Positions 236-59,792 of a stretch of 64,000 bases of DNA are shown here, piece after piece; position 1 is the first letter of the stretch; every line of letters starts with the position of its first letter. The notes below the pieces were generated by a model. It saw nothing but the letters and a program-made list of their open reading frames with translations. It was not told where the DNA came from and did not search any database. A program made the position numbers and the translations under genes. This DNA is from an uncultured Acidobacteriota bacterium. Its GTDB lineage: Bacteria; Acidobacteriota; Thermoanaerobaculia; UBA5066. The stretch covers positions 26,039-90,038 of the forward strand of contig CALAQS010000109.1 of the NCBI GenBank assembly GCA_937888435.1. The letters run 5' to 3'.

Positions 236-979
236 TCAGCGCATCCGCCCCAGCGCAGGAGCCTGGCGTTCCGTGATGTCGACCGCCGTGTTCGAGAGGA
301 CCGCCATCCCGTTCAGGCTCGAGACTCGTATCGCGGCCGTCCGGGCGGGCGGCCCGGTCGGCGTGCCACGGAACCCGCCGCCGATGACGGGCCCGATTCC
401 GCCCTCTCCGTGCCGCGCGACGAGGACGCGCCGGATGTACTCGCGCGTCTCGCGATACGGCGGCACGCCGGAGTGGTGCGTCACGGCGTTCTCGCCGGCG
501 TTGTACCCCGCGAGCGCCAGGGCCACGTCGCCCTTGAACTGCTCGAGAAGGGTGGCGAGATACTTCACGCCCGCGCGAATGCTCTGGCCCGCGTCATACC
601 GGTCGGACACGCCGAACCGAAGGGCCGTGCCGGGCATGAGCTGCATGAGGCCGCGGGCGCCCTTCCTCGACATGGCGCGCGGATTGAAGTTGGACTCCAC
701 GAGCATGACGCTCTTGACGAGCGCTGCATCGACGCCCGCCGCCCGCGCCTCGCTCTCGATCGCCGCGTCGTACGGCGACGGCGTGTTACGCCGCTCGACG
801 AGGTAGGCGTCCGAGGGCGCCCCGCCGCTCACGCGCCAGCCGCTGCCGACCTTGTCGTTGAAGATCAGCGCCGAGCCGTTCGCCTGGCGCACGAGATGGA
901 CGTCGGCGCGCAGGGCGCCCGTCGCCGCGAGCAAAGCGGCCACAGACACCCGCGCCAGACCAATCCCGCGAGATGGCAT
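236..979 (-). CDS. Family-1 soluble lytic transglycosylase (SLT domain) protein with N-terminal signal peptide.
   Basis: Translation contains the SLT motifs ESNFNPRAMSRKGARGLMQLMPGTA and AYNAGENAV. N-terminus is signal-like (VSVAALLAATGALRA). Confidence 0.8.
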   Translation of the reverse strand: MPSRGIGLARVSVAALLAATGALRADVHLVRQANGSALIFNDKVGSGWRVSGGAPSDAYLVERRNTPSPYDAAIESEARAAGVDAALVKSVMLVESNFNPRAMSRKGARGLMQLMPGTALRFGVSDRYDAGQSIRAGVKYLATLLEQFKGDVALALAGYNAGENAVTHHSGVPPYRETREYIRRVLVARHGEGGIGPVIGGGFRGTPTGPPARTAAIRVSSLNGMAVLSNTAVDITERQAPALGRMR

Positions 980-3805: not shown

Positions 3806-5017
3806 CTATCCCGGCTGGTTCGAGAAGTCGAAGGGCGAGGCCGCTTCCTGCGAGCTGAGCGCGTCGGGCGACTCCAGGGCGCCCTCCATGAGCTCGTTCG
3901 CGATGTCGGACGTGGACTGGATGCCCTGCACCTTGAGCTTGAACTCGTTCGGGTTGCTCGAGCGCCGGATCGCCTCTTCCAGCGTGATGAGGCCCGTCTT
4001 GTAGAGCTGGAAGAGCGACTGATCGAATGTCTGCATCCCGTACTGCGAGGTGCCGGCCTTGATCGCGTCGTGGATGTACTTCGTCTTTTCCTTGTTCTCG
4101 ATGCAGTCGCGGATGTAGTTCGTCGCCACGAGCACCTCGACGGCCGGCACGCGGCCGAGGCCGTCCGCGCGCGGGAGAAGACGCATCGAGCACACGGCCT
4201 TGATGACGGCCGCGAGCTGCAGGCGAATCTGCTTCTGCTGGTGCGGCGGGAAGACCGAGATGATGCGGTTGACCGTCTCGGTCGCGTCCATCGTGTGGAG
4301 GGTCGACATGACGAGGTGGCCCGTCTCGGCGGCCACGAGCGCCGTCTCGACGGTCTCGAAGTCGCGCATCTCGCCCACGAGGATGACGTCCGGGTCCTGC
4401 CGGAGGGCCGCGCGGATCGCGGACGCGAACGAGCGCGTGTCCACCTCGAGCTCGCGCTGGTTGATGATCGATTTCTTGTCGCGATGGAGGAACTCGACGG
4501 GGTCCTCGATCGTCATGATGTGCTCGGACCGGGTCGAGTTGATGTAGTCGATCATCGCGGCGAGCGACGTGGACTTGCCCGAGCCCGTCGTCCCGGTCAC
4601 GAGAATGAGGCCGCGCGTCTCCTCGCAGATTCTCTCGAGCACGGGCGGCAGGAGGAGGTCGCGAACCGTGAGGATGCGGGCCGGGATGACGCGGCAGACC
4701 ATTCCGACCGTCCCGCGCTGCTGGAAGATGTTGCAGCGGAACCGCCCGAGCCCCGGCACCGAATACGCGATGTCGATCTCGAAGTTGTTCTTGAATTTTT
4801 CCTTCTGCCGCGAAGACATGATCGAGAACGCCATCGCGATCGTGTCTTCCTGCATGAGGCGCTTGAGGTCGACGAGCGGGGTCAGCTCGCCGTCGACACG
4901 GATGATCGGGTGCGCGCCGACCTTCAGGTGGAGGTCGGACGCCTTCCGCTCGACCGCGATCTTGAGCAGGTCGTTGATGTGCATGAGCGACCTCCGACCG
5001 TTCCGGGATTCGGACAA
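3806..5017 (-). CDS. pilT: Type IV pilus twitching-motility/retraction ATPase PilT.
   Basis: Walker A GTTGSGKST, the PilT/PilU signature and the MAFSIMSSRQKEKF N-domain. Carries a short acidic C-terminal tail beyond typical PilT length. Confidence 0.88.
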   Translation of the reverse strand: MSESRNGRRSLMHINDLLKIAVERKASDLHLKVGAHPIIRVDGELTPLVDLKRLMQEDTIAMAFSIMSSRQKEKFKNNFEIDIAYSVPGLGRFRCNIFQQRGTVGMVCRVIPARILTVRDLLLPPVLERICEETRGLILVTGTTGSGKSTSLAAMIDYINSTRSEHIMTIEDPVEFLHRDKKSIINQRELEVDTRSFASAIRAALRQDPDVILVGEMRDFETVETALVAAETGHLVMSTLHTMDATETVNRIISVFPPHQQKQIRLQLAAVIKAVCSMRLLPRADGLGRVPAVEVLVATNYIRDCIENKEKTKYIHDAIKAGTSQYGMQTFDQSLFQLYKTGLITLEEAIRRSSNPNEFKLKVQGIQSTSDIANELMEGALESPDALSSQEAASPFDFSNQPG

Positions 5018-17975: not shown

Positions 17976-18698
17976 TCATCCCTTAGCCTCCCCGGCGGCC
18001 CGGGGTGCCGCAACCTTCACGCGCGCGGGCCGCAGGAGCCGGTCGTTGAGAAGGTACCCTTTCTGGAGTACCTCGAGCACCGTGCCCGGCGCGACGGATT
18101 CCGTCTCTTCGCGCACGACGGCCTCGTGAACGTTCGGGTCGAACGGAAGGCCCGAGGCTGGCACCTCCCCGACGCCGTACTTTTTGAGCGTATCGGCCAG
18201 CTGCCTCGCGATCATGTCGATGCCCGCGTGGAATTCGTCTCCCGTGGCGTCGGCGCGATGGGCGAGCGCGCGCTCGAAGTTGTCGACGACGCTCAGGATG
18301 TCGGCAAACGCCTCGGCGAGCGCAAACCGGAAATATTCGGCCTTGTCTTTCTCGGTCCGGCGCTTCAGGTTGTCGAAATCCGCCGACTTCCGGAGCAGCG
18401 CCTCGCGAACGCGGCCCGAGTCCTCCTCGGCGCGAAGCGCGCGTTCACGCTCTTTCGCGACCTGATCCTCGAGGACGGCCAGGCGTGGATCCGGCACCGG
18501 CGGCTTCGGCGGTGCGGGCTCGGGCTCGGGGGCCGCGACGGCGACCGGACGAGTGCCTTCGCTCTTGCGGTGCTTCTCCTCGACAACCTCGATGGCGCGC
18601 TCGGCCTCCGCGAGCGCGCGGGCGACGTCGCTGCGGCTCTCGGTCTCGAGGAAGATGATGTCTTCGTCCTCGCGGTGCGGCTTCTTCGGGCCGCTCAT
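17976..18698 (-). CDS. grpE: Nucleotide exchange factor GrpE.
   Basis: GrpE coiled-coil and C-terminal beta-domain. Position lies between hrcA and dnaK. Confidence 0.9.
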   Translation of the reverse strand: MSGPKKPHREDEDIIFLETESRSDVARALAEAERAIEVVEEKHRKSEGTRPVAVAAPEPEPAPPKPPVPDPRLAVLEDQVAKERERALRAEEDSGRVREALLRKSADFDNLKRRTEKDKAEYFRFALAEAFADILSVVDNFERALAHRADATGDEFHAGIDMIARQLADTLKKYGVGEVPASGLPFDPNVHEAVVREETESVAPGTVLEVLQKGYLLNDRLLRPARVKVAAPRAAGEAKG

Positions 18699-19753
18699 GC
18701 CGCTCCTTCCGTGAGCCGGCGGCTCACGTAGCGCGAAAGCTCGCCCACGAGCGGCACGACGCGCGCGTACTTCATCCGGCGCGGCCCGATCACCCCGAGC
18801 ACGCCGATCACGCGGTCGCCACGGCGGTACGGCGCGGAAACGACGGCGCTGCCGGTCTCGTCCGTGAAGGGGCTCTCGGAGCCGATGACGACCGCGAGAG
18901 AGTCGGCCGTGATGCAGTCGGCGAGAAGGCTCACGAGCCGCGCCTTCTCCTCGAACGCGTGAAACATCCGTCGCAGAGCCTCGAGGTCGTTCCGAAACTC
19001 GGGCTTCTCGAGCAGCGACTCGGTGCCCTCCATGTAAACGGCTTCTTCCTGCGGGCCAGTCTCGGCGAAGGCCCGGCGCCCGAGCTCGAGCGCGCGTGCG
19101 AGCGCGCGGTCCATGCGCACCTTCTCTTCTCCCAGCGAGGCGAGGAGGAGGACACGGATTTCGCCGAGGCTCTTTCCGGCGAAGTCGATCGTCAGCCGGT
19201 TCGAGATGCCGTCCAGCTCGGCTTGCGAGAAGTCCTCGCGGGTCTCGATGAGGCGGCTCTCGACGAATCCCGTGTCGGAGACCTCGGCCACGACGATCTT
19301 GCAGTCGGAGAGGCGCGTGAAATGCACGGACTCGAGGACGAAGCTCATCGAGGCGGGAGCCGCCACCACGCCCACCTCTCCCGTCAGACGGCAGAGAACG
19401 CCCGACGTGGCCTTCAGGAAGCGCTCCGTCTCGAACGGCTCGGGCGAGAGCTCGTCGGCGATCCGGGCGCGGTCACTTTCGCTGGGCGCTTGCGCCGGCA
19501 TCAGGTCGCGGACGAACGCCCGGTACCCCAGATCGGTTGGCACGCGGCCGGCCGAGACGTGGGGATGCGTGAGAAAGCCGAGATCCTCGAGGTCCGCCAT
19601 CGCGTTGCGCAGCGACGCCGACGAAAGGCCGAACTTCCCCCCCTTCGTCAGCTGACGCGACGACACGGGGACGGCACTTTCGATGTACGCGACGATCACC
19701 GAGGCGAGAACCTCGCGGGACCTCGCGTCCAAACCCTTGAAATCGTTGGTCAT
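18695..19753 (-). CDS. hrcA: Heat-inducible transcription repressor HrcA.
   Basis: HrcA N-terminal wHTH (REVLASVIVAYIESAVPVSSRQL). First gene of the hrcA-grpE-dnaK-dnaJ operon. Confidence 0.9.
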   Translation of the reverse strand: MTNDFKGLDARSREVLASVIVAYIESAVPVSSRQLTKGGKFGLSSASLRNAMADLEDLGFLTHPHVSAGRVPTDLGYRAFVRDLMPAQAPSESDRARIADELSPEPFETERFLKATSGVLCRLTGEVGVVAAPASMSFVLESVHFTRLSDCKIVVAEVSDTGFVESRLIETREDFSQAELDGISNRLTIDFAGKSLGEIRVLLLASLGEEKVRMDRALARALELGRRAFAETGPQEEAVYMEGTESLLEKPEFRNDLEALRRMFHAFEEKARLVSLLADCITADSLAVVIGSESPFTDETGSAVVSAPYRRGDRVIGVLGVIGPRRMKYARVVPLVGELSRYVSRRLTEGAA

Positions 19754-19787
19754 CGCGGCGCAAGGCCCTCCGCCCCTGCTTGGCTCC

Positions 19788-19816
19788 TTGACGTCACCGG
19801 GAGCGGCTCATGATAT
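19788..19816 (+). promoter_or_regulatory. Candidate sigma70-type promoter for the mglA-like gene (TTGACG-N17-TGATAT).
   Basis: Hexamers at 19788-19793 and 19811-19816 with 17-nt spacing lie in the hrcA/mglA divergent region. The -35 hexamer is part of the 8-bp palindrome TGACGTCA. Confidence 0.4.
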
Positions 19817-19881
19817 CAAAGGTAGTCGCCCTCGGGTGTAAGATCAGATGCCCCTCGGGAGGTCGGCGGAGCCTTATTCCT

Positions 19882-21225
19882 ATGGTTTTCTTCAATTACG
19901 CGACGATGCAGATGGCCGCCAAGATCGTGTATTACGGTCCGGGTCTCTGCGGGAAAACCACGAATCTTCACGTGATTTACGGGCGCACAGCGCCCACCTC
20001 TCGCGGGGAGATGGTCTGCCTGGAGACGGAAACCGACCGGACGCTGTTCTTCGACCTGCTGCCGCTGGACGTCGGTGTCATCGGGGGATTCAAGACCCGC
20101 CTCCAGCTGTACACCGTACCCGGACAGGTTTTCTACAACACGACGCGGAAGCTCGTCCTCAAGGGCGTGGACGGAATCGTGTTCGTGGCCGACTCCCAGC
20201 GGCCTATGAAGGATCCGAACGTCGAGAGTCTTCGCAACCTCCGCGAAAACCTCGCAGAGATCGGCATCTCCCTCGATGCGACTCCCCACGTTTTCCAGTA
20301 CAACAAGCGCGATCTCGCGAACATCCTGACTCTCGACGAGCTGAACGACGCCCTGAACCCGGATGGCGCGGTGGAGTGGTACGAGGCTTCGGCCAGGAAT
20401 GGGACGGGAGTCTTCGAGACCCTCAAGGCGATCTCGAAGCTCACTCTCCGCTCCCTCAAGGGCCGGATGGCGGTCGAGCAGAGACGTCCCGCGGTCGTCG
20501 CGACCGCGACCACTCCCGGTCCCCAGCCGATGATGTCGTCGAAGGCCGCCGCCTCGGGCATCGGCGAGGCCATCGATGCGATGGCGACGACGCAGGCGGT
20601 GATCACGGCTCCTGCCGTGCCCGAAGAAGGCCCCGATTCGACGATCTCCCGGCTCAAGCGTTTCCAGGAGGCCGCCCGGCGACAGAACCGTGATCTCGAG
20701 GCGCGGGACGTCCCCGCCGACACGTCGCCCGCGCTTCTCCTTTCCGCGGAAACCGCGCCTTTCGACGCCGCCAATTACCCGCAGACCGAAGACACGGCCA
20801 GCGAGGTGAGCTTCGCCGAGATCCAGCCTCCGCCGGACGACGTGCCCATGGACTCTTCGATGAAGCACGTGCGCGTGCGCTCGAACGTCGACATCCTTTC
20901 CGAGCTCGAGAAGCTTCGAAAGATCGCGACCCAGCGGCCGGCGATACCAGGTGGCTCCCACAAGAGCAAGAGCGCCGCGGATTTTTCGCTCGACGACCTG
21001 CTCGGATCGGCGCGAAACCATCGGAAGGACGTGGCGCAGTCGTTCGACCTCGAGGTCCCTCGCGACACTCTCGCGAAGACCCGCCACGTGACGGTCGGGC
21101 TCTCGTTCGGCGACGGGGCCGGCGCAGCCCTCGGCTCCGAGAAACGGTTCGACGTGGATTTCGCGGGCCTGAAGGACATCAACAAGCTCCTGCTCTCGCT
21201 GAAGTTCCATGTCAAGGGCGAGTAG
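19882..21225 (+). CDS. mglA: MglA-family Ras-like small GTPase with a ~250-aa low-complexity C-terminal extension.
   Basis: N-terminal ~195 aa carry MglA hallmarks: KIVYYGPGLCGKTTN (P-loop), TETDRTLFFD (switch I), YTVPGQVFY, QYNKRDL (G4). Start taken at ATG 19882 (MVFFNY). An in-frame ATG at 19810 would sit inside the putative -10 hexamer. The ORF runs uninterrupted to 21225. Confidence 0.8.
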   Translation: MVFFNYATMQMAAKIVYYGPGLCGKTTNLHVIYGRTAPTSRGEMVCLETETDRTLFFDLLPLDVGVIGGFKTRLQLYTVPGQVFYNTTRKLVLKGVDGIVFVADSQRPMKDPNVESLRNLRENLAEIGISLDATPHVFQYNKRDLANILTLDELNDALNPDGAVEWYEASARNGTGVFETLKAISKLTLRSLKGRMAVEQRRPAVVATATTPGPQPMMSSKAAASGIGEAIDAMATTQAVITAPAVPEEGPDSTISRLKRFQEAARRQNRDLEARDVPADTSPALLLSAETAPFDAANYPQTEDTASEVSFAEIQPPPDDVPMDSSMKHVRVRSNVDILSELEKLRKIATQRPAIPGGSHKSKSAADFSLDDLLGSARNHRKDVAQSFDLEVPRDTLAKTRHVTVGLSFGDGAGAALGSEKRFDVDFAGLKDINKLLLSLKFHVKGE

Positions 21226-21283
21226 GGCCGCGGGGCGATTGCGCTTGACGTCCCCCTCCCGGGTCGGGTTCACTCCCCAGGCG

Positions 21284-23089
21284 ATGAGAATCCTCCGGCG
21301 GTCTTCCGCCCGGGTCGCGCGCCTCGCGGCCGGGCTCCTGCCTCTCGCGATTGCCGCCTGCTCGGCTGCACCCCGCGAGGCCCCGGTTTCGCGGATGTCG
21401 CCGGCCGAAGACCCGCCGGCGATTGCCGCTGCGCATAAGCTGGCCGCCGAGCAGTTCTACCAGGGCAAATCGCTCGCCCTCGCGGGCGAGAGCGACTGCG
21501 CCCGCGAGGCCTTCCGCGACGCCCTCGAGACGTTCCGGATCGCGTCGCGCCCGGGCAACCCGTCCGACCTCGCGTTCGCGAGCGAGCTCTATGACTCGAT
21601 CGCCCTCTACCGTCCCGCGATCGAGGCTGGCGCGCGCGCGGCCGAGGCCGAGCGTCCGCCCGCCGAGGACCCGCGTGACAGCCTCGTCGCCACGGCGCCG
21701 CTCCCGTCTCCGGACGAGGTCGAGAGGGCCAAGACGGAGGTCGGCTTGGCGGCTTCGGGAACCGGCTTCGACATTCCGATCGTCGTGAACGACGCCGTGC
21801 TCCGGGCCGTCGCCTTCTACCAGTTCCGGACCCCCATGGCCTTCGCGGCGGCCCTCAAGCGAAGCGGGCGCTACCTCGACCTCATGCGCGGCGTCCTCAA
21901 GGAGGAGGGAGTTCCGCAGGATCTCGTCTATGTCGCGATGGTCGAGTCGGCTTTCAAGTACCAGGCTCACTCGCGCGCGGCCGCCCACGGCTTCTGGCAG
22001 TTCATCGCCGGCACGGGTAAGCGTTACGGGCTCAAGCGGAATCGCTCTCTCGACGAGCGGAGCGACCCTGTAAAGTCCACGCGCGCCGCTGCGGCCTATT
22101 TCCGCGACCTCTACGAGATGTTCGGGGACTGGCACCTCGCGATGGCCGCGTACGACGCGGGCGAGGGCCGGATCCTGAAAGGCCTCCAGCGCACCGGCGC
22201 GCGCGACTTCTGGGAGCTCGCGACGGGCAACAGTCTCCGGCGCGAAACACGCGACTACGTGCCGTTCATTCTCGCGACGGCGCTCATCGCGAAGGATCCG
22301 GCACGCTTCGGTTTCGACGTCGTTCCCGATCCGCCGCTCGCCTGGGACACGGTGACGGTCCGTAAGCCGGTCGATCTCGCGCGCGTGGCCGAGCTCACGC
22401 TGGCGACGCTGCCTGAGCTCCAGCTTCTCAACAGCGAGCTCAGGACGCGCACGACTCCGCACGGAGTCCTTGCATACGACGTGCGCGTCCCCGCCGGCTC
22501 GGCCGCTCTTCTGGCGTCGCGGATCGCCGCGCTTCCGGCCGCGCCGGCGGTCGTCGAGAAGCGCGTCGTCGTCAGGAAGGGCGACACGCTCCTGAAAATC
22601 GCGAAACGGGCGGGCGTGTCCGTGACCGAGCTGTGCGACTGGAACGACCTGCCCCGCACGGCCCGCCCGAAGAAGGGCACCGTTCTCGTCGTGCCCGGCA
22701 AGCGCGGGACCGCCCGGCCACGCGAGGCGCTCGCCTCGGCGTCCCCCGCATCCCGGGGCGAGATCCGCGGGGTTCCGACGCCCGCGGCGGCGGTCACGTC
22801 GGCATCTCTCGTCGGGCCTTACACGTCATCGGTTCCGCCCACGACGGCCTCACGAACCACCGAGGCGCCACCCGCCGCCGTCGCGATTCCCGCGGAGGGG
22901 TTCGTCGACACGCCTTCGCGCGGGACCCGCGTCGTCCGCCATACCGTCAAGAAAGGCGACACGCTTTTCGCGATCGCCTCGCACTACGGCGTGAGCGTGG
23001 GCGAGATCCAGCGCCAGAACCGCATCCGCTCTCCACACGCGCTCAAGGCAGGGCAGACGCTCGTCCTCTCGCTCGCTGCATTGAACTGA
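21284..23089 (+). CDS. Membrane-bound lytic murein transglycosylase D-like lipoprotein (SLT domain plus two C-terminal LysM domains).
   Basis: Lipobox LAIAAC. SLT motifs (VESAFKYQAHSRAAAHGFWQF, AYDAGEG). Two LysM repeats (VVRKGDTLLKIAKRAGVSV, HTVKKGDTLFAIASHYGVSV). Confidence 0.8.
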   Translation: MRILRRSSARVARLAAGLLPLAIAACSAAPREAPVSRMSPAEDPPAIAAAHKLAAEQFYQGKSLALAGESDCAREAFRDALETFRIASRPGNPSDLAFASELYDSIALYRPAIEAGARAAEAERPPAEDPRDSLVATAPLPSPDEVERAKTEVGLAASGTGFDIPIVVNDAVLRAVAFYQFRTPMAFAAALKRSGRYLDLMRGVLKEEGVPQDLVYVAMVESAFKYQAHSRAAAHGFWQFIAGTGKRYGLKRNRSLDERSDPVKSTRAAAAYFRDLYEMFGDWHLAMAAYDAGEGRILKGLQRTGARDFWELATGNSLRRETRDYVPFILATALIAKDPARFGFDVVPDPPLAWDTVTVRKPVDLARVAELTLATLPELQLLNSELRTRTTPHGVLAYDVRVPAGSAALLASRIAALPAAPAVVEKRVVVRKGDTLLKIAKRAGVSVTELCDWNDLPRTARPKKGTVLVVPGKRGTARPREALASASPASRGEIRGVPTPAAAVTSASLVGPYTSSVPPTTASRTTEAPPAAVAIPAEGFVDTPSRGTRVVRHTVKKGDTLFAIASHYGVSVGEIQRQNRIRSPHALKAGQTLVLSLAALN

Positions 23090-24627: not shown

Positions 24628-24736
24628 CCGCCGCTTTGTCAATGAGTTGGATGAGGGACGCGTTTCTCCCTTGACAGGTCCGCCACGCGGATTAAGATTT
24701 CCATCGTTCAATCGTTGGCCTTCGTGGTGTAAGGCT

Positions 24737-25642
24737 ATGCGTGTGTTTGCGGGAAGGAAACGGATGCCGAGAAGAGAGCACACCATCATCTTCCTGCCCC
24801 ACGCTAGGGCGCGTTTCCGGCAGTTCCGCGTCTCCTCGCGGCTTCTCTGGTGCTTGGGCGTCTCTTTCGGCCTCGCGGTCGTCCTCGGCGTGACCTTCTC
24901 CGTCCTGTGGGTCCGCTCGATCCGCAGGAACAGAGAAGTCACCGCCATTCTGGCCGAGAACTCGGACTTGAGGTCGCGGGCGGCTCTCACGAATACGCGC
25001 CTCGAGTCGATCGAGAAGATGCTCGCCGACTTCGAGGATCGCACGCGCCGTCTGTCGATCGTCGCCGGGCTGTCGGCGGTGCGGGATCCCGGCATGGGCG
25101 GCGTCGGCGGCCTCACGGCGGTGCCCGTGAACCCCGCGGATTCCGTCGAGTCGGGCCTCAGCGAGGCCGGGCGCCGCGGCGCCCTCCTGTCGTCGCGCCT
25201 GAAGGTCGTCGAGAAGAAGCTCTTCCTGCAGGCCGACCAGCTCGCCCTGACACCCAGCATCGCCCCCGCCGTCGGCGTGCTGACGGCGGGCTTCGGGGCG
25301 CGCCCCGACCCGTTCACGAACCACTCCGAATTTCACACCGGCATCGACATCTCGACTCCCGCCGGGAATCGCGTCGTCGCTCCGGCGTCCGGCACGGTCG
25401 TGCGCGTGGGCTGGGACCAGGGCTACGGCCGCTTCCTGGAGATCGCCCACGGCTACGGCGTCACGACGCTGTATGGGCACCTTCAGGCAGCGCGAGTGGC
25501 CGAGGGCCAGCGCGTCAAGCGCGGAGACCTCGTGGCGCTCGTCGGCTCCACGGGCCGCTCCACCGGGCCGCACCTCCATTACGAGGTGCACGCCGACGGC
25601 AAACCGGTGAACCCGCTCGACTACGTTTTGAACGCTTTCTGA
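24737..25642 (+). CDS. M23-family peptidoglycan metalloendopeptidase with an N-terminal membrane anchor.
   Basis: M23 motifs HTGIDI and HLHYEVH, one TM helix and a coiled-coil. The alternative start ATG at 24764 has a better RBS (GGAAGGAAAC). Confidence 0.8.
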   Translation: MRVFAGRKRMPRREHTIIFLPHARARFRQFRVSSRLLWCLGVSFGLAVVLGVTFSVLWVRSIRRNREVTAILAENSDLRSRAALTNTRLESIEKMLADFEDRTRRLSIVAGLSAVRDPGMGGVGGLTAVPVNPADSVESGLSEAGRRGALLSSRLKVVEKKLFLQADQLALTPSIAPAVGVLTAGFGARPDPFTNHSEFHTGIDISTPAGNRVVAPASGTVVRVGWDQGYGRFLEIAHGYGVTTLYGHLQAARVAEGQRVKRGDLVALVGSTGRSTGPHLHYEVHADGKPVNPLDYVLNAF

Positions 25643-25714
25643 CGGCTTCGCCTCCCCGCCTCTACCTGCTAAACTGATTTTTTGCGCGTCCTCTTCTGGG
25701 CGTGCATTCCTCGC

Positions 25715-28555
<2,841 letters not shown>

Positions 28556-45750: not shown

Positions 45751-47466
45751 TCACTTCCGGGGTGCGGCCTCCTCGCCGGCGAAGGCCGAGATGAAGACGG
45801 ACTTCTGAAGATAACTCGTTTGGTTCGTGATGTCGTCGCGCACCGCGATCGAGAGCTTCTGGCCGCCCGGGATCATGATGAGTTTCACGCTGTAGACGAA
45901 ATCCTTGCGCGCGAGCGCCTCGAACTCCTTCGCGCTGTACTCGATCGGCTGGGGCTGCGTCGTGAGGTCCGACTGCTTTCCCGCCGAGTCGATGACGACG
46001 AAGTAGAAGACGACGCGGCCGCGCACCTTCGAGCCCTCGGGCAGCATCGCGAGGCGCGAGTAGGGAATCCGGATGACCACCGGGACCGCGAAGTTCTCGC
46101 GGTCGGCCGGGGCGGGCTTCCCGACTTCGAGACCCACGGCGAGGGGATTGTCGTCGCGCGGGAAGAATAGCGCCGAGGTGACCGCCTCGCGCACCTTCGT
46201 CTCGACGCCCTTCTCGAGATAGCTGCGGCGCGCGCGCACGGTCAGCCCCTTCTTCTTCAGCTTGACCTCGACCTTGTGCGGGCGGTCGAGCCCGGTGCGC
46301 AGGCTCCGGTAGCCGATCGAGTAGTACGACGTGTAGTCCTTCTCGATGTTCTTGAGGGCGCCGAGGACGTCGTTCTTGTTCAGGATGGCCTCGCCGCCGG
46401 TTTCCTCGGCCATGAGGCTCAGCATCGACTCGAGGTTGTTTTGCTCGAGGAACGCGTCGATGCGCTGGGACGTGGCGCGGTTCTCGGCCGATATGTTCGA
46501 ATCCACCGTGAGGCCCGCCGCATCGATCGCGTAGATCGACACGCCTGAGGAATTCGCCGCCTGCACGACGGAAAGGTACTTCGTGGTCCGATCGAACTCG
46601 AAAGTCGACATCAGGCCCACGGAGTTGGGGTACTTGTCGGAGATGTACTTCCACAGCTCCGCCCCCGGAGACTGCGGCAGGCCGTCGGAGATGTGGATGA
46701 AAATCTTGCGGCCCTCGACGCCGGCGAGCTGGTTGATCGTCGTGTTCATCGCGTCGATCGTGAAGTTCAGGTCGTTGTCGAGCGACTGGCAGTAGGACCG
46801 CACCCGGCCCGCAGCCTCGTCCGCGGTCGTGGAGTCGTCGATCGCCTTGATCACGTCCCGCCGGTCGGAGAGGTCCTGCTGACCCATGGTGCTCTCGTCC
46901 TCGATCTGCCTGAGGACGTCCGACAGGTCGCGGCCGTCGTTCGTGAACTTTCTCCGGATCTTCAGCGACCGGTTGAACGCGACGATCATGCCCTCGACGT
47001 TGTCCTTGACGTTCTCGCGGACGAAGATCTCGACGTTCCTGAGGACGCGGTTGCGGTTGAACGGCGAGAGGTGAAGACTGTCCACGAAAACGATGATGCG
47101 GGTCCTCGGCATCTTCTCGCGCGCCGGCGCCGGGGCGGGAGCCGGCGCGGGCGCGGGCGCGGGCGGAGTCTCCTCGACGGGCAGGACGAAGCGGCCCTGC
47201 TCCACGGGAGAGAAGTTCGTGACGAGCTGCTCGAGGTTGTCCTCGACGACGATGAAGTCCTCTTTTTTCAGGCCGGTCACCCGGTTCCCCTTCCCGTCGG
47301 TCACGACGACGTCGAGGTTCGTCACGGTGATGCTCTCGCGGGCGACGAATCCTCCCGCCGGCGTCTCGGGCTTGCCGGCGGGAGCCTGGGACACGGCGGA
47401 CGATCCGGCGAGCGCGACGACGAGGAGGAGCGGGGCCCGAAGGAGGAAAGCGGGGCGAATCGACAT
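45751..47466 (-). CDS. Secreted VWA-domain protein (VWFA-related Acidobacterial-type).
   Basis: Signal peptide and a (PA)7 linker. VWA MIDAS-like region (IIVFVDSLHLSP). Resembles the TIGR03436 family from memory. Confidence 0.7.
   Translation of the reverse strand: MSIRPAFLLRAPLLLVVALAGSSAVSQAPAGKPETPAGGFVARESITVTNLDVVVTDGKGNRVTGLKKEDFIVVEDNLEQLVTNFSPVEQGRFVLPVEETPPAPAPAPAPAPAPAREKMPRTRIIVFVDSLHLSPFNRNRVLRNVEIFVRENVKDNVEGMIVAFNRSLKIRRKFTNDGRDLSDVLRQIEDESTMGQQDLSDRRDVIKAIDDSTTADEAAGRVRSYCQSLDNDLNFTIDAMNTTINQLAGVEGRKIFIHISDGLPQSPGAELWKYISDKYPNSVGLMSTFEFDRTTKYLSVVQAANSSGVSIYAIDAAGLTVDSNISAENRATSQRIDAFLEQNNLESMLSLMAEETGGEAILNKNDVLGALKNIEKDYTSYYSIGYRSLRTGLDRPHKVEVKLKKKGLTVRARRSYLEKGVETKVREAVTSALFFPRDDNPLAVGLEVGKPAPADRENFAVPVVIRIPYSRLAMLPEGSKVRGRVVFYFVVIDSAGKQSDLTTQPQPIEYSAKEFEALARKDFVYSVKLIMIPGGQKLSIAVRDDITNQTSYLQKSVFISAFAGEEAAPRK
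47113..47164. repeat. GC hexamer microsatellite (GCGGGC-like x4-5) encoding the (PA)n linker of the VWA protein.
   Basis: Tandem gccggcgcgggcgcgggcgcgggcgg visible on the plus strand. Confidence 0.6.
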
Positions 47467-47505
47467 GGCAGGATTGTACGGGGCGCGCGGATAGAATCCC
47501 GTCCG

Positions 47506-48084
47506 ATGCCATTCCGCGTCCGCCGCCACCTCACTGCCGGGCTTCTCGTGCTCGTTCCGCTCGTCATCACGGCGGTCGTCATCCGCTTCGTCTTCAACGT
47601 GATCGACGGCGCCAGCCAGCCCCTCACCGAGCGCCTCGTGGGCCGGGCCATCCCGGGCCTGGGGCTCGTCCTGACGATCGCCGTCATCTGGCTGACGGGC
47701 CTTCTTTCCTCGAATCTCGTCGGGAAGAAATTCCTTGAACTTTTCGGCCGCCTCTTGGAGAATCTCCCCCTCGTCAAGACGGTCTATACCGCTTCGAAGC
47801 AACTCGTCGAGGCTGTGTCGCCGGGCGGCCGTCGGGCCTTCCAGCGAGTCGTCCTTGTCGAATTTCCTCATAAGGGGACCTTTGCGTTGGGATTCGTGAC
47901 GGGGAACGGCATCGGCTCACTCGACGCGAGCACGCTTTCGGTCTACGTTCCAACGGCGCTAAACCCGACGAGCGGTTTCCTGATATTCGCGAAGGAAAGC
48001 GATATTCTCGACCCCCGCCTCACGGTGGAGGAGGGGATCAAGCTCGTCGTGTCGGGCGGAGTCGTCAGGCCGCACGGGAACTAG
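47506..48084 (+). CDS. DUF502-family membrane protein.
   Basis: Two N-terminal TM helices and a conserved DUF502 core (LVKTVYTASKQL ... VLVEFPHKGTFALGFVTG). Confidence 0.72.
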   Translation: MPFRVRRHLTAGLLVLVPLVITAVVIRFVFNVIDGASQPLTERLVGRAIPGLGLVLTIAVIWLTGLLSSNLVGKKFLELFGRLLENLPLVKTVYTASKQLVEAVSPGGRRAFQRVVLVEFPHKGTFALGFVTGNGIGSLDASTLSVYVPTALNPTSGFLIFAKESDILDPRLTVEEGIKLVVSGGVVRPHGN

Positions 48085-48119
48085 AAGCCTTGCCGGGCGG
48101 TCCAACGGAGCGGCCGGAG

Positions 48120-49058
48120 ATGAGCGCGAAGCGGCGGGAGACCGAAAGGAGTGAACGGGCGATGACGGGAAATCTCACCGGCAGGGGACGAACGGTTCGG
48201 CGGATCGCCGCGGCCGGTCTCGCCGTGCTGTCGCTCGGGGTCGCGGGTTGCGACAAGTTCAAGAGCAAACAGCTCATCCGGGAGGGAAACGCCTACTTCA
48301 AAGAGCAGCTCTACGAGGACGCCCTGAAGAAGTATGAAGCGGCCCAGGCCCTCGATCCGACCGAGGTTCGCCTCGACAAGTTCGTCGCGATGGGCTACAT
48401 GGCCCTCTATAACCCCGGCTCGACGCACCCGAAGGACATCGAGGCGCTGAGCCGGTCGATCGAACACTTCAAGAAATACCTCGCCGCCAAGCCCGACGAC
48501 GACAAGGCCGCGAGGTTCCTCGTCACGACGTATATGAACGCCCAGAAATACGACGAGGCGATCAAGTATTTCAAGGAGCTCGTGGAGAAGCACCCCCAGG
48601 ACTCGCAGGCCGTGCAGACGATCGCGATGCTCTACGCGAAGCAGGGCGACTACGAGAACTCCATCGAGTGGCAGAAGAAGCGCGGCGTGCTCGAGCCGAA
48701 CAACGCCGAAGTGTTCTACACGATGGGTGTCACGGCCTGGGACAAGTCCTACAACACCGTGGGCGTCGACATCTCCCCCGACAAGGGCCTGACGCCCGAG
48801 AAGCGGAAGGAGATCCTGGATTTCGGCATGGCGCAGCTCGACAGGGCGATCCAGCTCAACCCCGACTACTTCGAGGCCATGCTCTACAAGAACCTGCTCT
48901 TCCGGCAGTACGTGCGCATCGAGCCGGACCCCGCTAAAGTCGCGGACCTGAACGCCAAGGCGACCGAGTGGCAGCAGAAGGCGCTCGAGATCAGGAAGAA
49001 GATCCAGGACAAGCAGCGCGCCGAGCAGGCCAGGAAGAATCCGCTCGAGGCGATGTAG
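48120..49058 (+). CDS. TPR-repeat lipoprotein encoded upstream of the TonB system.
   Basis: Lipobox LSLGVAGC. Multiple TPR units (AYFKEQLYEDALKKYEAA, YAKQGDYENSIEW). Confidence 0.7.
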   Translation: MSAKRRETERSERAMTGNLTGRGRTVRRIAAAGLAVLSLGVAGCDKFKSKQLIREGNAYFKEQLYEDALKKYEAAQALDPTEVRLDKFVAMGYMALYNPGSTHPKDIEALSRSIEHFKKYLAAKPDDDKAARFLVTTYMNAQKYDEAIKYFKELVEKHPQDSQAVQTIAMLYAKQGDYENSIEWQKKRGVLEPNNAEVFYTMGVTAWDKSYNTVGVDISPDKGLTPEKRKEILDFGMAQLDRAIQLNPDYFEAMLYKNLLFRQYVRIEPDPAKVADLNAKATEWQQKALEIRKKIQDKQRAEQARKNPLEAM

Positions 49059-49076
49059 GGAGCCAGGAGAGCACGC

Positions 49077-49808
49077 ATGTTCGAAGCCTCGCTCATCGAG
49101 TCAGGGAAGCACAAGGGGACCCAGCGCTGGTACACGCTGCCGCTCTCGTTCCTGATCCACCTCGTCGTGGTCGGGACCGCGGTCGGCCTCTCGATGTGGT
49201 TCATCGAGGACATTCCCGAGCCCCCGATCCCGGTGCAGTTCTACTCAAGCCAGGCGGCCCCGCCGCCCCCGCCGCCGCCGCCGGCGAAGGCCGCGGCCGC
49301 GAAGCCGACTCAGAAAGTCGAGCCCGTCAAGCCGAGCCAGGTGACATCCCCCCTCGTCGTTCCGGAGTTCCTTCCGCCGCCGACGAGCGCCCCCGAGCCG
49401 GATAACGCCGGCGTGGAAGGCGGCGTGGAGGGCGGCGTGGAGGGCGGCGTCGCGGGCGGCGTCATGGGCGGCGTCCTCGGCGGCGTGAAGGGCGGAATGC
49501 TCGGCGAGAAGGGCGAGGAGCCCCTCCGGGTCGGCGGCGAGGTCAAGGAGCCCGTCGAAATCTCGCGCGTGAAGCCGTCGTATCCCGAAGCGGCCCGCAA
49601 GGCCCGCATGCAGGGCGTCTGCATCCTTGAGGCCATCATCACGAAATCGGGCGATGTCGAGTCCGTTCGCGTGCTCCGCGGTCTGAACCCGCTCCTCGAC
49701 AACGCGGCGATTCGTGCGGTCTCGCAATGGAAATACAAGCCTGCGACCTTCAATGGACGCGCCGTTCCGGTCTATCTGACGGTCACCGTTACCTTTACGC
49801 TCCAGTAA
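49077..49808 (+). CDS. tonB: Energy transducer TonB.
   Basis: N-terminal TM anchor, a Pro-rich spacer, a Gly-Gly-Val 4-residue repeat array and the TonB C-terminal domain (ARMQGVCILEAIITKSGDV ... YKPATFNGRAV). Confidence 0.85.
   Translation: MFEASLIESGKHKGTQRWYTLPLSFLIHLVVVGTAVGLSMWFIEDIPEPPIPVQFYSSQAAPPPPPPPPAKAAAAKPTQKVEPVKPSQVTSPLVVPEFLPPPTSAPEPDNAGVEGGVEGGVEGGVAGGVMGGVLGGVKGGMLGEKGEEPLRVGGEVKEPVEISRVKPSYPEAARKARMQGVCILEAIITKSGDVESVRVLRGLNPLLDNAAIRAVSQWKYKPATFNGRAVPVYLTVTVTFTLQ
49412..49498. repeat. Tandem 12-bp repeats (GGCGGCGTGGAG-like, ~7 units) inside tonB encoding (GGVx)n.
   Basis: Direct reading of ggcgtggaaggcggcgtggagggcggcgtggagggcggcgtcgcgggcggcgtcatgggcggcgtcctcggcggcgtgaagggcgg. 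Confidence 0.7.
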
Positions 49809-49835
49809 GGCGCCGGCGGCCACTCGAAATAGAAT

Positions 49836-49875
49836 AGAAACGCAAGGACCACGAGCTCCGCTCGGAAACGCAAGG
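49836..49875 (+). promoter_or_regulatory. Direct repeat GAAACGCAAGGA (x2, 28-nt spacing) plus AATAGAATAGAAA tract upstream of exbB. Candidate operator or regulatory element.
   Basis: Copies at 49836-49847 and 49864-49875. The second copy overlaps the exbB RBS. The AT-rich tract at 49828-49840 is unusual in this GC-rich DNA. Confidence 0.3.
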
Positions 49876-49887
49876 AGGACGATTCAA

Positions 49888-50568
49888 ATGGATATGAGTC
49901 TGATGGGGCTGATCAAGACGATGTCGCCGCCCGCGCTGGCGATCTTCTTCCTGCTCTGCCTGCTTTCGGTCTACTCGCTCGCCGTGTCGGTCGAGCGGTG
50001 GATAACCTTCCAGAAGGCGAAGCAGCAGTCGGTCAAGTTCGCCCTGGAGGTCGGCCAGCTCCTGAAGCAGGACAAGCTCAGGGAGGCGATCGACCTCGCC
50101 AAGAAGTACAAGAACAGCCACGTCGCGAAGGTCGTGTCCGCGGGGCTCCTGGAGTTCGCCTACGAGGCGCACGGCGCCGCCGCGCAGGGGCACGACACCG
50201 TCGCCGCCGCGGAGCGCGCGGTCGAGCGCGCCTCGATGATGACAACCGCGGACCTCAAGAAGGGCCTCGGCGGTCTTGCCACGATCGCGACGACGGCGCC
50301 GTTCATCGGCCTTCTCGGCACCGTCATCGGCATCATTAACGCCTTCCGCGGCATGGCGGCGTCCGGGGCCGGCGGTCTCGGCTCGGTGTCGGCCGGCATC
50401 GCGGAAGCTCTCGTCACGACCGCCTTGGGCCTCTTCGTCGCCATTCCGGCGGTGTGGCTCTACAACATGTTCCTCAACAAGATCGAGCGCTTCCAGGTCG
50501 AGATGTCGAATTCGGCCTCCGAGCTCATCGATTACTTCATGAAGCGCCAGGCGACGAAGGCCGCGTGA
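49888..50568 (+). CDS. exbB: MotA/TolQ/ExbB-family proton channel.
   Basis: Three TM helices and the TolQ/ExbB signature (ATTAPFIGLLGTVIGIINAF). Confidence 0.88.
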   Translation: MDMSLMGLIKTMSPPALAIFFLLCLLSVYSLAVSVERWITFQKAKQQSVKFALEVGQLLKQDKLREAIDLAKKYKNSHVAKVVSAGLLEFAYEAHGAAAQGHDTVAAAERAVERASMMTTADLKKGLGGLATIATTAPFIGLLGTVIGIINAFRGMAASGAGGLGSVSAGIAEALVTTALGLFVAIPAVWLYNMFLNKIERFQVEMSNSASELIDYFMKRQATKAA

Positions 50569-50641
50569 GGACCGTCCGGTCAACAGAGATCCCGCCAGCC
50601 GCCCTCGAGCGGATAGCGGCGCAGTAGCGAGGAGTTCACTC

Positions 50642-51061
50642 ATGGGAATGGATAGCTTCGGCGGCCGTCAGAGCATGAAGAGCGACATCAACGTGACGCC
50701 GCTCGTCGACGTGTGCCTCGTTCTCCTCATCATCTTCATGGTCGTGACGCCGATGCTCCAGAAGGGCAAGCCCGTGACGCTCCCGCAGACCGACCGGCCC
50801 GACAAGAAGCCCGAGTCCGACAAAGAGCTCATCATCTCCGTGATTTCCGACAAGACCATCTTCATCGACACGAAGTGGTTCCCCCCGAAGGATTTCGAAG
50901 CGAAGATGAAGGAGATCGGCGAGCGCGCGGCGAACAAGGACATCCTCATCAAGGCCGACAGAACCCTGAACTTCGGCGACGTCAAGAACGTCATGAGGAT
51001 GATCAAGGACGGCGGGTTCGAGCGCGTCGGCCTCATCACCGAGAAGAAACCGGACAAGTAA
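50642..51061 (+). CDS. exbD: ExbD/TolR-family biopolymer transport protein.
   Basis: INVTPLVDVCLVLLIIFMV TM segment plus a periplasmic domain. Confidence 0.88.
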   Translation: MGMDSFGGRQSMKSDINVTPLVDVCLVLLIIFMVVTPMLQKGKPVTLPQTDRPDKKPESDKELIISVISDKTIFIDTKWFPPKDFEAKMKEIGERAANKDILIKADRTLNFGDVKNVMRMIKDGGFERVGLITEKKPDK

Positions 51062-51631: not shown

Positions 51632-54064
<2,433 letters not shown>

Positions 54065-57359: not shown

Positions 57360-58487
57360 CTACCCGACCACGAAATCCGGCAGGATCCGCGCCGACAGTC
57401 GCAGATCGTCTCCGATCCGGACCGCGTCGAGGCCGGCGAGGCGGCAGGCGTCTCCGAGACGGTCAGCCCCCTCGCCCCCGAGCGGTGAGCGGGCGTCGGC
57501 GCCGCCCACGAGAAGCGGCGCGACATACGCGGTCACGCGGTCCACGAGACCCGCCTTCAGGAACGACGCGGCCGTCACGCCTCCGCCCTCGACGAGCACG
57601 GAGCGCACCTCGAGGGCGTGGAGCGCGCCGAGGAGAGCCCCCAAATCGACGCCGCCGCCCGCCGCGGGCCTCGAGAAGACCTGCACGCCGCGCTCGAGGA
57701 ATGGCGCGAGGCGCGGATCGCCGGACGGCACTGCCGTGACGAGCCAGACCTCGCCTCCCGCCGCGGAGAACACGCGTGCGGTGGCCGGCACGCGGAGGGC
57801 TCCGTCGAGGACGAGTCGGCGATGCGGCGTGATCGCCGAGGAAAGCGCAAGGCGGCGGGTCAGGAGAGGGTCGTCCGCGAGGATCGTGAGCGCGCCGACG
57901 AGGATCGCGTCGCACTCCTCGCGCAGGCGCAAGGCGTCCTCGCGCGCGGCCTCGCCGGTGATCCACTTCGAGTCGCCGCTCCGCGTCGCGGTCCGGCCGT
58001 CCAGCGACGCCGCCCACTTCAGGTGGACGAACGGACGGCGGGCGCGAATGGCCTTCAGGAAGGCCTCGTTCAGCGTCTCGGCCTCGTCCGCGAAGGCTCC
58101 GACCAGCACGTCGACGCCGCGCTCTTTGAGACGGCGGACCCCGCGCCCGGCGGTCCGCGGGTCGGGATCCTCGATCGAGCAGACGACGCGCGAGACCCCC
58201 GCCGCGAGCAGCGCCTCCGTGCAGGGAGACGTGCGACCGAAATGAGAGCAGGGCTCGAGGTTGACGAGCAGTGTCGCGCCCTTCGCGCGCGCTCCCGCGG
58301 CCGCCAGCGCGATGGCCTCGGCGTGCGGGCCGCCGGCGCGCTCGTGAGCGCCTTCCCCGATCACCGTCCCGTTCGCGTCGACGAGGACGGCGCCGACGCG
58401 CGGATTCGGTGACGTCGAAAAGCGCCCACGTTGGGCGAGCTCGAAGACGCGCCGCCAGAGGACGTCGAGAGGCGAGGTTTCAATCAT
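57360..58487 (-). CDS. ribD: Bifunctional riboflavin biosynthesis deaminase/reductase RibD.
   Basis: CMP/dCMP deaminase zinc motifs (HAEAIAL, PCSHFGRTSPC) plus a RibD C-terminal reductase domain. Start taken at MIETSP. Confidence 0.85.
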   Translation of the reverse strand: MIETSPLDVLWRRVFELAQRGRFSTSPNPRVGAVLVDANGTVIGEGAHERAGGPHAEAIALAAAGARAKGATLLVNLEPCSHFGRTSPCTEALLAAGVSRVVCSIEDPDPRTAGRGVRRLKERGVDVLVGAFADEAETLNEAFLKAIRARRPFVHLKWAASLDGRTATRSGDSKWITGEAAREDALRLREECDAILVGALTILADDPLLTRRLALSSAITPHRRLVLDGALRVPATARVFSAAGGEVWLVTAVPSGDPRLAPFLERGVQVFSRPAAGGGVDLGALLGALHALEVRSVLVEGGGVTAASFLKAGLVDRVTAYVAPLLVGGADARSPLGGEGADRLGDACRLAGLDAVRIGDDLRLSARILPDFVVG

Positions 58488-59412
58488 CCACGAGCGCTCC
58501 GGCGAACGCCGCCGCATCGAAGTCGAGAAGGTCGTCCGTCGTCTCGCCCACGCCCACGTAACGGACCGGCAGCGCGAGCTCGCGCACGATCGCCAGGATC
58601 ACGCCGCCCTTCGCCGTTCCGTCCATCTTCGTGAGCACGAGACCGGTGACACCGGCGGACTTCGTGAACTCGCGGGCCTGGGCGATCCCGTTCATTCCCG
58701 TCACGGCGTCGAGAACGAGAAGGACCTCGTGCGGCGCCCCCGGAATGCTGCGTGCGGCGATGCGGCGGATTTTGGAAAGCTCCTCCATGAGGTTGTGCTT
58801 CGTGTGAAGGCGTCCGGCCGTGTCCACGAGAAGCAGGTCGGCCTTTCGCGCGAGCGCAACCGCGCACGCGTCGTGGACGACGGCGGCCGGATCGGCCCCC
58901 GCCTTGAGCTTCACGAGGGGAACGTTCAGCCGGGAGGCCCACACCTCGAGCTGCTCCATCGCCGCGGCGCGGAACGTGTCCGCCGCAGCGAGGACGACCG
59001 ACTTCCCCGCGGCCACGGCGCGTGCCGCGAGCTTGGCGGCCGTCGTCGTCTTGCCCGTGCCGTTCACCCCGACCAGGAGAATCACGTGGGGAGATCCGGG
59101 CGCGAGGTCGGGCCCGCGGATAGAGAGCCGCTTTTCGACCTCGGCCTTGAGAACACGCCTGACGACGTCCTGCTCGGCGGCGTCGCGCCGCCCGGCCTCG
59201 GCCTTCACGGCGGCGACCAGCTCCTCCGCCGTCGCCGGACCCACGTCGGCCGCAAGGAGGCCCTCCTCGAGCGCGTCGAGCGCCGCGGGATCCGCCTCGA
59301 ACGTGGCCCGGATCGCGCCTCCCACCTTCGCGAGGAGCTCCGTGTGGGTCATGAAGAGCCCGCGCTTCAGGCGGGCGAGGACAGAGGACGGGTCGCGATC
59401 GCCGTTCGCCAT
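58480..59412 (-). CDS. ftsY: Signal recognition particle receptor FtsY.
   Basis: NG domain with GVNGTGKTTT, DTAGR and TKMDGTAKGG motifs. Confidence 0.9.
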   Translation of the reverse strand: MANGDRDPSSVLARLKRGLFMTHTELLAKVGGAIRATFEADPAALDALEEGLLAADVGPATAEELVAAVKAEAGRRDAAEQDVVRRVLKAEVEKRLSIRGPDLAPGSPHVILLVGVNGTGKTTTAAKLAARAVAAGKSVVLAAADTFRAAAMEQLEVWASRLNVPLVKLKAGADPAAVVHDACAVALARKADLLLVDTAGRLHTKHNLMEELSKIRRIAARSIPGAPHEVLLVLDAVTGMNGIAQAREFTKSAGVTGLVLTKMDGTAKGGVILAIVRELALPVRYVGVGETTDDLLDFDAAAFAGALVDD

Positions 59413-59441: not shown

Positions 59442-59792
59442 TCACGAGACCTCGGCGACGAGGCGCGCGCGGGCCTCGTCGAGCCGTGCGCGCGCGGCGT
59501 GCGGCTCGCCGCCACCGTCGAAGACGACGAGGACGAAGTAGCCCGCTTTCACGTGAGTCGTGAGAATTCGCCGGCTCGCGAACTGGAACGAGAGATCGGA
59601 GATCTCGCCGAGGCCCGAGCGCTCGGCCGCGCGGCGCAGCTCTCCCAGCCATACGGACTGGTAGGCTCCGAGAACTTCCGTCGCGCTCTTCCCGCCCACG
59701 CGCGCGATGATCTCGCCCTGCGGGTCGATGAAGGCCGCGCCCAAGGCGCCCGGAGCGTCGAGAAGACCCTCGAGCGCGTCCGCGAATCTCAT
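59442..59792 (-). CDS. Roadblock/LC7-domain (MglB-like) protein.
   Basis: 116-aa alpha-beta-beta-alpha-beta pattern (LGAAFIDPQGEIIARVGG ... YFVLVVFD). 4-nt overlap with the upstream TPR gene stop. Confidence 0.65.
   Translation of the reverse strand: MRFADALEGLLDAPGALGAAFIDPQGEIIARVGGKSATEVLGAYQSVWLGELRRAAERSGLGEISDLSFQFASRRILTTHVKAGYFVLVVFDGGGEPHAARARLDEARARLVAEVS

Follow-up and report, generated by a model that had tools for sequence, protein, structure and literature searches.

MglA and its partners

MglA is the best-understood Ras-like switch of bacteria, and its logic is known almost wholly from a single-domain protein with a separate GTPase-activating protein (GAP), guanine nucleotide exchange factor (GEF) and scaffolds in Myxococcus and Thermus. 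The subject here is a gene for a much longer form, called long mglA below, in a stretch of 64,000 nucleotides (nt) of chromosomal DNA (63-73% GC) from an uncultured Acidobacteriota bacterium, contig CALAQS010000109.1; this whole stretch is referred to as the window. Sequence comparison shows its product, of 447 amino acids (aa), to belong to a long subfamily of group-1 MglA that is conserved and had not been characterised before. The switch is familiar; the module fused to it, and its pairing with a cell-wall enzyme, are new.

Group-1 MglA proteins are defined by an Arg finger beside the Thr of the G2 motif and by a G3 motif that reads TVPGQ (Wuichet & Sogaard-Andersen 2014, PMC4316618). In that family survey 390 of 449 small MglA genes were coupled to mglB; sequences above 240 aa, 39 of the 488 in the MglA clade, were left out, and the two MglA entries from Acidobacteria are short proteins of 194 and 196 aa (PMC4316618). 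Fused forms of MglA were never described because this reference survey removed everything longer than 240 aa, and no description of a long acidobacterial MglA was found in the literature searched, a limited collection.

Several described proteins share one or another property with the long form. The M. xanthus paralogue SofG carries its extension at the N-terminus and is a divergent paralogue, far more divergent from MglA than the long protein is. It is an MglA-family GTPase of 239 aa without a cognate MglB (PMC4316618). The MglA of Bdellovibrio bacteriovorus is a group-1 protein and an orphan without MglB, in which Ser21 is predicted to lock the GTP state (PMC3983030). Among the partners, MglB has an acidic C-terminal helix that binds alpha5 (K181, K185) and the beta2-beta3 loop (L64, I67) of MglA and promotes nucleotide exchange (Baranwal et al., PMC6785124). 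RomR consists of a REC domain, a Pro-rich unstructured linker and a conserved Glu-rich C-terminal region, the linker and the C-region each being pole-targeting (PMC3441718). MglC, a member of the orphan MglB subfamily that occurs in genomes encoding group-1 MglA, binds both MglB and RomR and lacks GAP activity; its FDI surface is needed for MglB binding, and it interacts with RomR-C (PMC4719450).

A long MglA in Acidobacteriota

Residues 1-193 of the long protein match M. xanthus MglA (PDB 5ymx, E-value 1.4e-71, 61% identity) and T. thermophilus MglA (3t12, E 2e-64) end to end. This bears out the original prediction, made from the letters of the window, that the first ~195 residues form an MglA-family GTPase with its motifs intact. 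The P-loop GPGLCGKTT (G1, G19-T27, with G21), the Arg finger R53, the G3 motif TVPGQ with Q82, and the G4 motif NKRD (141-144) are all present. Within the long-MglA family every one of these hallmarks is invariant, and D52-R53-T54 and T78-V-P-G-Q82 are without exception in 54 family members. The alpha5 helix carries K182 and K186. G-domain identity to the window protein averages 91% among aligned close relatives (range 84-97%), and those Thermoanaerobaculia and Holophagales loci that diverge most still show 75-90%. Judged by its motifs, the G domain is thus shown to be a catalytically complete group-1 MglA; it keeps Gly21, where Bdellovibrio MglA has Ser21, and therefore looks like a GAP-responsive switch.

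Similarity to the Ras-like G domain extends over its full length, and both the Arg finger by the G2 Thr and TVPGQ are in place. At 447 aa the protein lies outside the 150-240 aa range of the survey, which is a size filter and not a phylogenetic criterion; and long mglA lacks the coupling to mglB (within four genes) that is typical of the group, not universal. General family models say little: Pfam gives the whole protein no significant match (E up to 0.01), and NCBIfam gives only a sub-threshold small_GTP match, on the G domain.

The open reading frame (ORF) as listed by program runs from an upstream ATG (19810-21225, 471 aa). The alignments place the real start at the ATG at 19882, giving 447 aa, since all homologs begin with the same N-terminus, MVFFNYATMQMAAK (MVFFNY...), and the DNA from 19810 to 19881 has single-base indels between close relatives, which marks it as non-coding. 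Third-position GC is 0.76-0.92 in all nine 50-codon blocks of the 447-aa frame; over the whole ORF it gives no sign of a frame change.

The family was delimited in three ways: 5.8 billion proteins were searched, 1.84 billion cluster representatives were compared with a profile, and genomes were scanned with a profile of the tail alone. More than 100 proteins of 424-479 aa align to 100% of the query at 57-94% identity. The tail-only profile found 64 genome loci, nearly all in metagenome-assembled genomes (MAGs) labelled Acidobacteriota (Thermoanaerobaculia, Holophagales); the closest, whose tails are 85-89% identical, come from Thermoanaerobaculia MAGs. An MglA ORF is recognisable in 62 of the 64, and about 57 are unbroken from MVFFNY to the terminal motif LLLSLKF.V..E, the remainder being frameshifted or at a contig edge. 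A profile of the module found 141 clusters, whose full-length members all start MVFFN[YW]ATMQMA and measure 412-650 aa. Among the 1.84 billion representatives the module occurs only on MglA proteins; none was seen stand-alone or on other domains. Short matches to the tail profile (100-300 aa), considered as stand-alone tail proteins, were rejected: they start inside the G domain or linker (LKMISKLTLR..) and lie on short contigs, as fragments do.

A minority of copies are frameshifted or split (loci L027, L028, L057, L065 and L066; proteins P0065, P0130 and P0132), mostly in long-read MAG series. The five loci, P0065 and P0130, chiefly from assemblies of the MFD series, are otherwise near-identical to intact copies and probably represent homopolymer errors, not pseudogenes. 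A single tail contig, L049 (JBLMYG010000228.1, 3 kb), bears the label Acidithiobacillales, probably through a binning error; the rest are all Acidobacteriota.

A variable linker and a conserved module

The original prediction saw in the ~250 residues after the G domain a probably disordered extension ending in a short conserved-looking tail. The extension is genuine, continuing the same 447-aa ORF, and its end is indeed conserved; tail sequences are conserved far beyond close relatives. Disorder is predicted for the first ~120 residues, and the description does not fit the last ~130. The tail consists of a linker followed by a conserved module of ~125-130 aa, the latter predicted to be partly folded, with confident structure in some of its parts.

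The linker is Ala/Pro/Thr/Glu-rich (Ala 20%, Pro 10%, net charge -7), and its identity to the window protein is on average 43%, ranging from 21 to 85%. The predicted local distance difference test score (pLDDT) of a full-length AlphaFold2 (AF2) model is below 50 over most of its length, as expected of disordered sequence. Three motifs are semi-conserved: DSTISRLKRFQE (aa 251-262), APFDAA (aa 292-297) and EVSFAEI (aa 308-314). Linker length ranges from ~100 to ~330 aa across the wider family. One sub-lineage of 382-aa proteins (P0040-P0051, on contigs of up to 415 kb) has undergone a clean in-frame loss of ~65 linker residues, about aa 237-300; these proteins keep the G domain and the C-terminal module and lack DSTISRLKRFQE and APFDAA, so that both motifs are dispensable.

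The module averages 66% identity to the window protein, and purifying selection on it is clear down to 20-35% identity. It comprises an amphipathic helix, KHVRVRSNVDILSELEKLRK, the motif SLDDLL, a beta-hairpin (about aa 398-422) and a terminal LLLSLKFHVKGE; the consensus is [VM]K[HRT]V[KR]V.S..D[IV][LM].EL..LRK..T, then S[LI]DDLL, then alternating hydrophobics ending L.L.LK. In the conserved C-terminal tail, DFAGLKDINKLLLSLKFHVKGE, L436, L438 and L440 are invariant. An AF2 model of the module, built from a 58-sequence alignment of database proteins at 19-71% identity, has a mean pLDDT of 76, rising to at least 90 for model residues 70-115. It contains the amphipathic helix (NVDILSELEKLRK), a short helix and a long beta-hairpin, with pLDDT of at least 90 over helix and hairpin.

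The module matches no known domain in Pfam, NCBIfam, PDB sequences or, by Foldseek, PDB structures. Pfam searches with the tail and the module give no family even at E up to 10; two tail profiles run against PDB sequences return only spurious low-complexity matches (E >1); and the best Foldseek hit of the module model against PDB has E 0.19, which is no match. A cryptic Roadblock domain was considered and rejected: hhalign against the Roadblock family of the window gives a probability of 0.7%, and neither Pfam, PDB sequences nor fold comparison yields a match.

Gene neighbourhood

The strongest contextual signal is the conserved gene for an MltD-like lytic transglycosylase (SLT and LysM domains) directly downstream (Table 1). 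Its ORF overlaps the mglA stop by 17 nt in the window; an alternative start at M26 (nt 21284), 58 nt past that stop, would give it a lipoprotein-type signal peptide (MRILRR...LAIAAC). Gene callers place a 4-nt overlap of the two genes in three other lineages. As the genes often overlap, they are probably co-transcribed. Thermoanaerobaculia and Holophagales loci with sufficient flanks have hrcA-grpE divergent upstream and the SLT+LysM gene directly downstream, on the strand of mglA. In the deep branches of the family the surroundings vary: the 412-aa member P0162 has quite different upstream genes (pheST, zapB, purA) and keeps mglA, the SLT+LysM gene and a ComM-like gene; P0185 has the order DUF2520-mglA-SLT+LysM without hrcA, and P0167 the same order with hrcA. 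In Holophagales the DUF2520-type gene sits between hrcA and mglA, a position at which the window has none.

Table 1. Features of the long mglA locus and of the rest of the window (positions are those of the window)
Feature	Position	Strand	Basis and remarks
pilT	3806-5017	-	TIGR01420, 475 bits vs cut-off 319
hrcA	18695-19753	-	Pfam HrcA E 1e-49; heads divergent hrcA-grpE-dnaK-dnaJ operon, down to 14965
Divergent intergenic region	19754-19881		128 bp, between hrcA and mglA
Long mglA	19882-21225	+	Single unbroken 447-aa ORF: G domain, linker and C-terminal module
MglA G domain, aa 1-195	19882-20466	+	PDB match, 61% identity
Variable low-complexity linker, aa 196-316	20467-20829	+	Alignment, composition, AF2
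Conserved C-terminal module, aa 317-447	20830-21225	+	Alignments, 141 clusters, AF2
MltD-like lytic transglycosylase	21209-23089	+	SLT E 8e-25, two LysM domains E 5e-28; MltD NF008050 E 1.7e-58, below equivalog cut-off
ComM/Mg-chelatase-like gene	Between SLT+LysM and M23 genes	+	Synteny with L001 only
M23 peptidase	24647-25642	+	Second peptidoglycan hydrolase gene downstream of mglA
Long ORF	25682-28555		After M23 gene; syntenic with secA in L001, synteny only
Orphan Roadblock/LC7 gene, 116 aa	59442-59792	-	Robl_LC7 E 8.7e-5, 22.6 bits vs cut-off 23 (borderline)

A Rossmann-like/DUF2520 gene directly upstream of long mglA, on the same strand, was observed in Holophagales and deeper branches (L031 8548-9381; L076 6106-6936; L077 5176-6096). 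The 650-aa lineage has a PilZ-domain gene two genes downstream, on the opposite strand (L067 9954-10661; L068 3489-4190).

That the gene diverges from hrcA across 128 bp had been read correctly in the original prediction, and holds with the start at 19882. The sigma70-like promoter proposed in the same interval is weak: the string TTGACG-N17-TGATAT exists, but TGATAT agrees with TATAAT at 3 of 6 positions, the -35 TTGACG is not conserved even in close relatives (nor, therefore, is the TGACGTCA palindrome around it), and a sigma-70 consensus scan finds no site. TGATAT itself is conserved in relatives. The block GGTGTAAGAT (19845-19854), downstream of it, is invariant in all ten aligned sequences, distant ones included, and could serve as the true -10 region or as a regulatory site. 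No inverted repeat was found in the intergenic region, and no CIRCE operator anywhere in the window.

The pilT gene 15 kb upstream, which had been offered as a type IV pilus context, is real. It is not evidence of linkage: at that distance, among housekeeping genes, it demonstrates no more than the presence of type IV pili in the organism. Elsewhere in the window, a second, small lytic transglycosylase with an SLT domain (247 aa) is encoded at 236-979 (-), at the left end. At 48090-51061 (+) lie genes for a TPR protein and then TonB, ExbB and ExbD, followed by a membrane H+-pyrophosphatase gene (51632-54064). A 706-aa protein encoded at 45751-47871 (-) has no Pfam match and strongly hits the acidobacterial VWA-domain model TIGR03436 (E 6e-58), which fits the Acidobacteriota origin of the DNA.

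A Roadblock gene resembling MglC

No Roadblock gene lies within 10 kb of long mglA in the window or in any related locus, in keeping with the original remark that none is adjacent. The only one in the 64 kb is 38 kb away, between a gene for a TPR lipoprotein and ftsY, and in Thermoanaerobaculia its homologs bear Roadblock/LC7/MglB-family annotations. This gene escaped the original prediction, as did the conserved MltD-like gene downstream of mglA.

A profile of this Roadblock family, run against PDB, matches M. xanthus MglC (7ct3) over its full length at E 3.7e-5; MglB chains give 0.27-0.45. The properties found are those of the MglC (MglB_orphan1) subfamily: an orphan Roadblock protein of ~120 aa, closer to MglC than to MglB, encoded 38 kb from a group-1 mglA. 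In the hidden Markov model alignment the FDGI positions of the MglC FDI surface (F25, D26, I28) fall on P-Q-G-E; the window family has its own invariant F21-x-D23-x-x-G26. It is possible that this MglC-like protein belongs to the same polarity module as long MglA.

The gene stands in a cluster, all on the minus strand, of a dCache-HAMP-HD-GYP sensor (60589-63180), the TPR lipoprotein (59789-60856), the Roadblock protein (59442-59792) and ftsY (58480-59412), the TPR and Roadblock genes overlapping by 4 nt. A relative preserves the order HD-GYP sensor-TPR lipoprotein-Roadblock-ftsY, at 59% identity, and carries its long mglA on that contig too. For the TPR lipoprotein no match rises above threshold; those found are to generic TPR models such as MamA, PilW and Tgl.

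What the module may do

One way to understand the long protein, and the one favoured here with little more than even confidence, is that the tethered MglA switch carries in its module an element of its own for localisation or partner binding. The G domain would act as in MglA, cycling between GTP and GDP states, with hydrolysis needing a trans-acting factor that repositions R53 and Q82. The module, on its flexible tether, would be the localisation or partner-binding element, possibly self-associating, and may anchor the switch at an envelope site, such as the pole, the type IV pilus or a cell-wall remodelling complex, much as RomR is brought to the poles by its linker and C-terminal region (PMC3441718). 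The co-encoded periplasmic peptidoglycan hydrolase would then be a likely output or co-worker of the switch. In Myxococcus, anchoring is done by separate proteins, RomR/RomX and MglB/MglC.

Several points weigh against this reading. Gene order inside one phylum can persist through descent alone, and the 650-aa protein P0202, from a deep branch, keeps hrcA and has no SLT neighbour. The absence of mglB covers 10 kb around the loci; a canonical mglA-mglB pair may exist elsewhere in the genomes. No regular secondary structure is assigned in the monomer model to the final ~20 residues, where the best-conserved motif lies, so that the fold of the module may be incomplete without a partner. The full-length AF2 model is poor (pLDDT 51) and is unusable for docking the tail onto the G domain, because the near-identical G-domain alignment carries no covariation.

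A bolder version, put forward tentatively, supposes a self-contained polarity switch. The module, as a new fold, would either regulate the G domain in cis, taking the roles of MglB and RomR at the allosteric pocket, or couple the state of the GTPase to the peptidoglycan-remodelling enzyme across the membrane.

A further perspective, somewhat unlikely, makes the tail a cis-acting control of nucleotide cycling: a stretch of the linker or module, acidic or amphipathic, would occupy the allosteric pocket (alpha5 lysines and beta2-beta3 loop), as built-in control of an exchange-factor-like or autoinhibitory kind, and an adjacent MglB would be unnecessary. In Myxococcus this pocket probably also receives the Glu-rich end of RomR. 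The pocket of M. xanthus MglA, K181, K185, L64 and I67 (PMC6785124), corresponds to K182, K186, V64 and I67 here, with K182, K186 and I67 invariant in the close family; the linker is acidic, and mglB is adjacent in no locus. The near-invariant motif [DE]-[VI]-x-F-[AG]-E (EVSFAEI in the window) moreover resembles SPFAEIS, just before the C-terminal helix of MglB. This likeness, however, amounts to four residues, which lie outside the contacting residues of MglB (D150-152, D154, F157; PMC6785124); after EVSFAEI comes PPP, which is incompatible with the helix; and in distant members the motif gives way to IDFSQ or VEFDT. It is therefore treated as a lead only. Conservation of the alpha5 lysines would be expected equally if a partner in trans used the pocket, and the full-length AF2 model lends tail docking no support.

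It is improbable that the module is a fused GAP of a non-Roadblock kind, which would replace MglB by stabilising the active site in cis or across a dimer. The residues kept (G21, R53, Q82) are of the MglB-responsive type (PMC3983030), mglB is adjacent in no locus, and the sole Roadblock protein of the window has more in common with MglC, a protein without GAP activity in Myxococcus (PMC4719450). Yet a permanently tethered GAP would defeat the switch unless it were itself regulated; the module has no Roadblock similarity by hhalign or in PDB; and mglB may exist elsewhere in the genome.

Finally, an artefact of assembly or annotation (frameshift fusion with a downstream gene, or non-functional read-through), for which only the few frameshifted or split entries listed above would speak, is excluded: the same fusion and end motif recur in ~57 independent loci and >100 protein clusters, obtained with a variety of assemblers and platforms, the coding signal runs on without a break, the module is under purifying selection, and the broken copies are a minority.

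Implications

Acidobacteriota that are abundant in soil and sediment share, across a whole lineage, an MglA whose G domain is under extreme constraint, which is permanently tethered to a novel conserved module and whose gene is paired with that of a lytic transglycosylase in place of mglB. Should the module localise or regulate the switch, the protein would be a compact polarity module in one polypeptide, and could reveal what MglB, RomR and MglC contribute that is essential. The module is in addition a defined new domain family for curation. To our knowledge, a link from GTPase to cell wall is undescribed for any bacterial Ras-like protein.

Comparison with known systems

SofG is, like long MglA, an extended MglA-family protein without a cognate MglB, and a SofG-like paralogue was one of the original suggestions. 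That identification fails: SofG has 239 aa, whereas long MglA has no N-terminal extension, bears a C-terminal one of 250 aa, and has an orthologue-like G domain, 61% identical to MglA. The MglA of Bdellovibrio resembles long MglA in having no adjacent mglB, but is a single-domain protein with Ser21 where long MglA has G21 and a tail.

RomR has the same layout: a folded signalling domain, a disordered linker that varies between lineages, and a short conserved C-terminal region. No sequence similarity to it was detected, the invariant Trp and Pro of RomR-C are absent from the module, and the N-terminal domain here is a GTPase. As for the C-terminal helix of MglB, the pocket residues of that mechanism are conserved on the long-MglA G domain, and the tail is acidic with an F-A-E-I motif.

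MglA itself, as in M. xanthus (MXAN_1925) and T. thermophilus, has the same P-loop, intrinsic Arg finger, TVPGQ, NKRD and alpha5 lysines as long MglA; to these the long protein adds ~250 C-terminal residues, and its gene is uncoupled from mglB and encoded with an MltD-like lytic transglycosylase.

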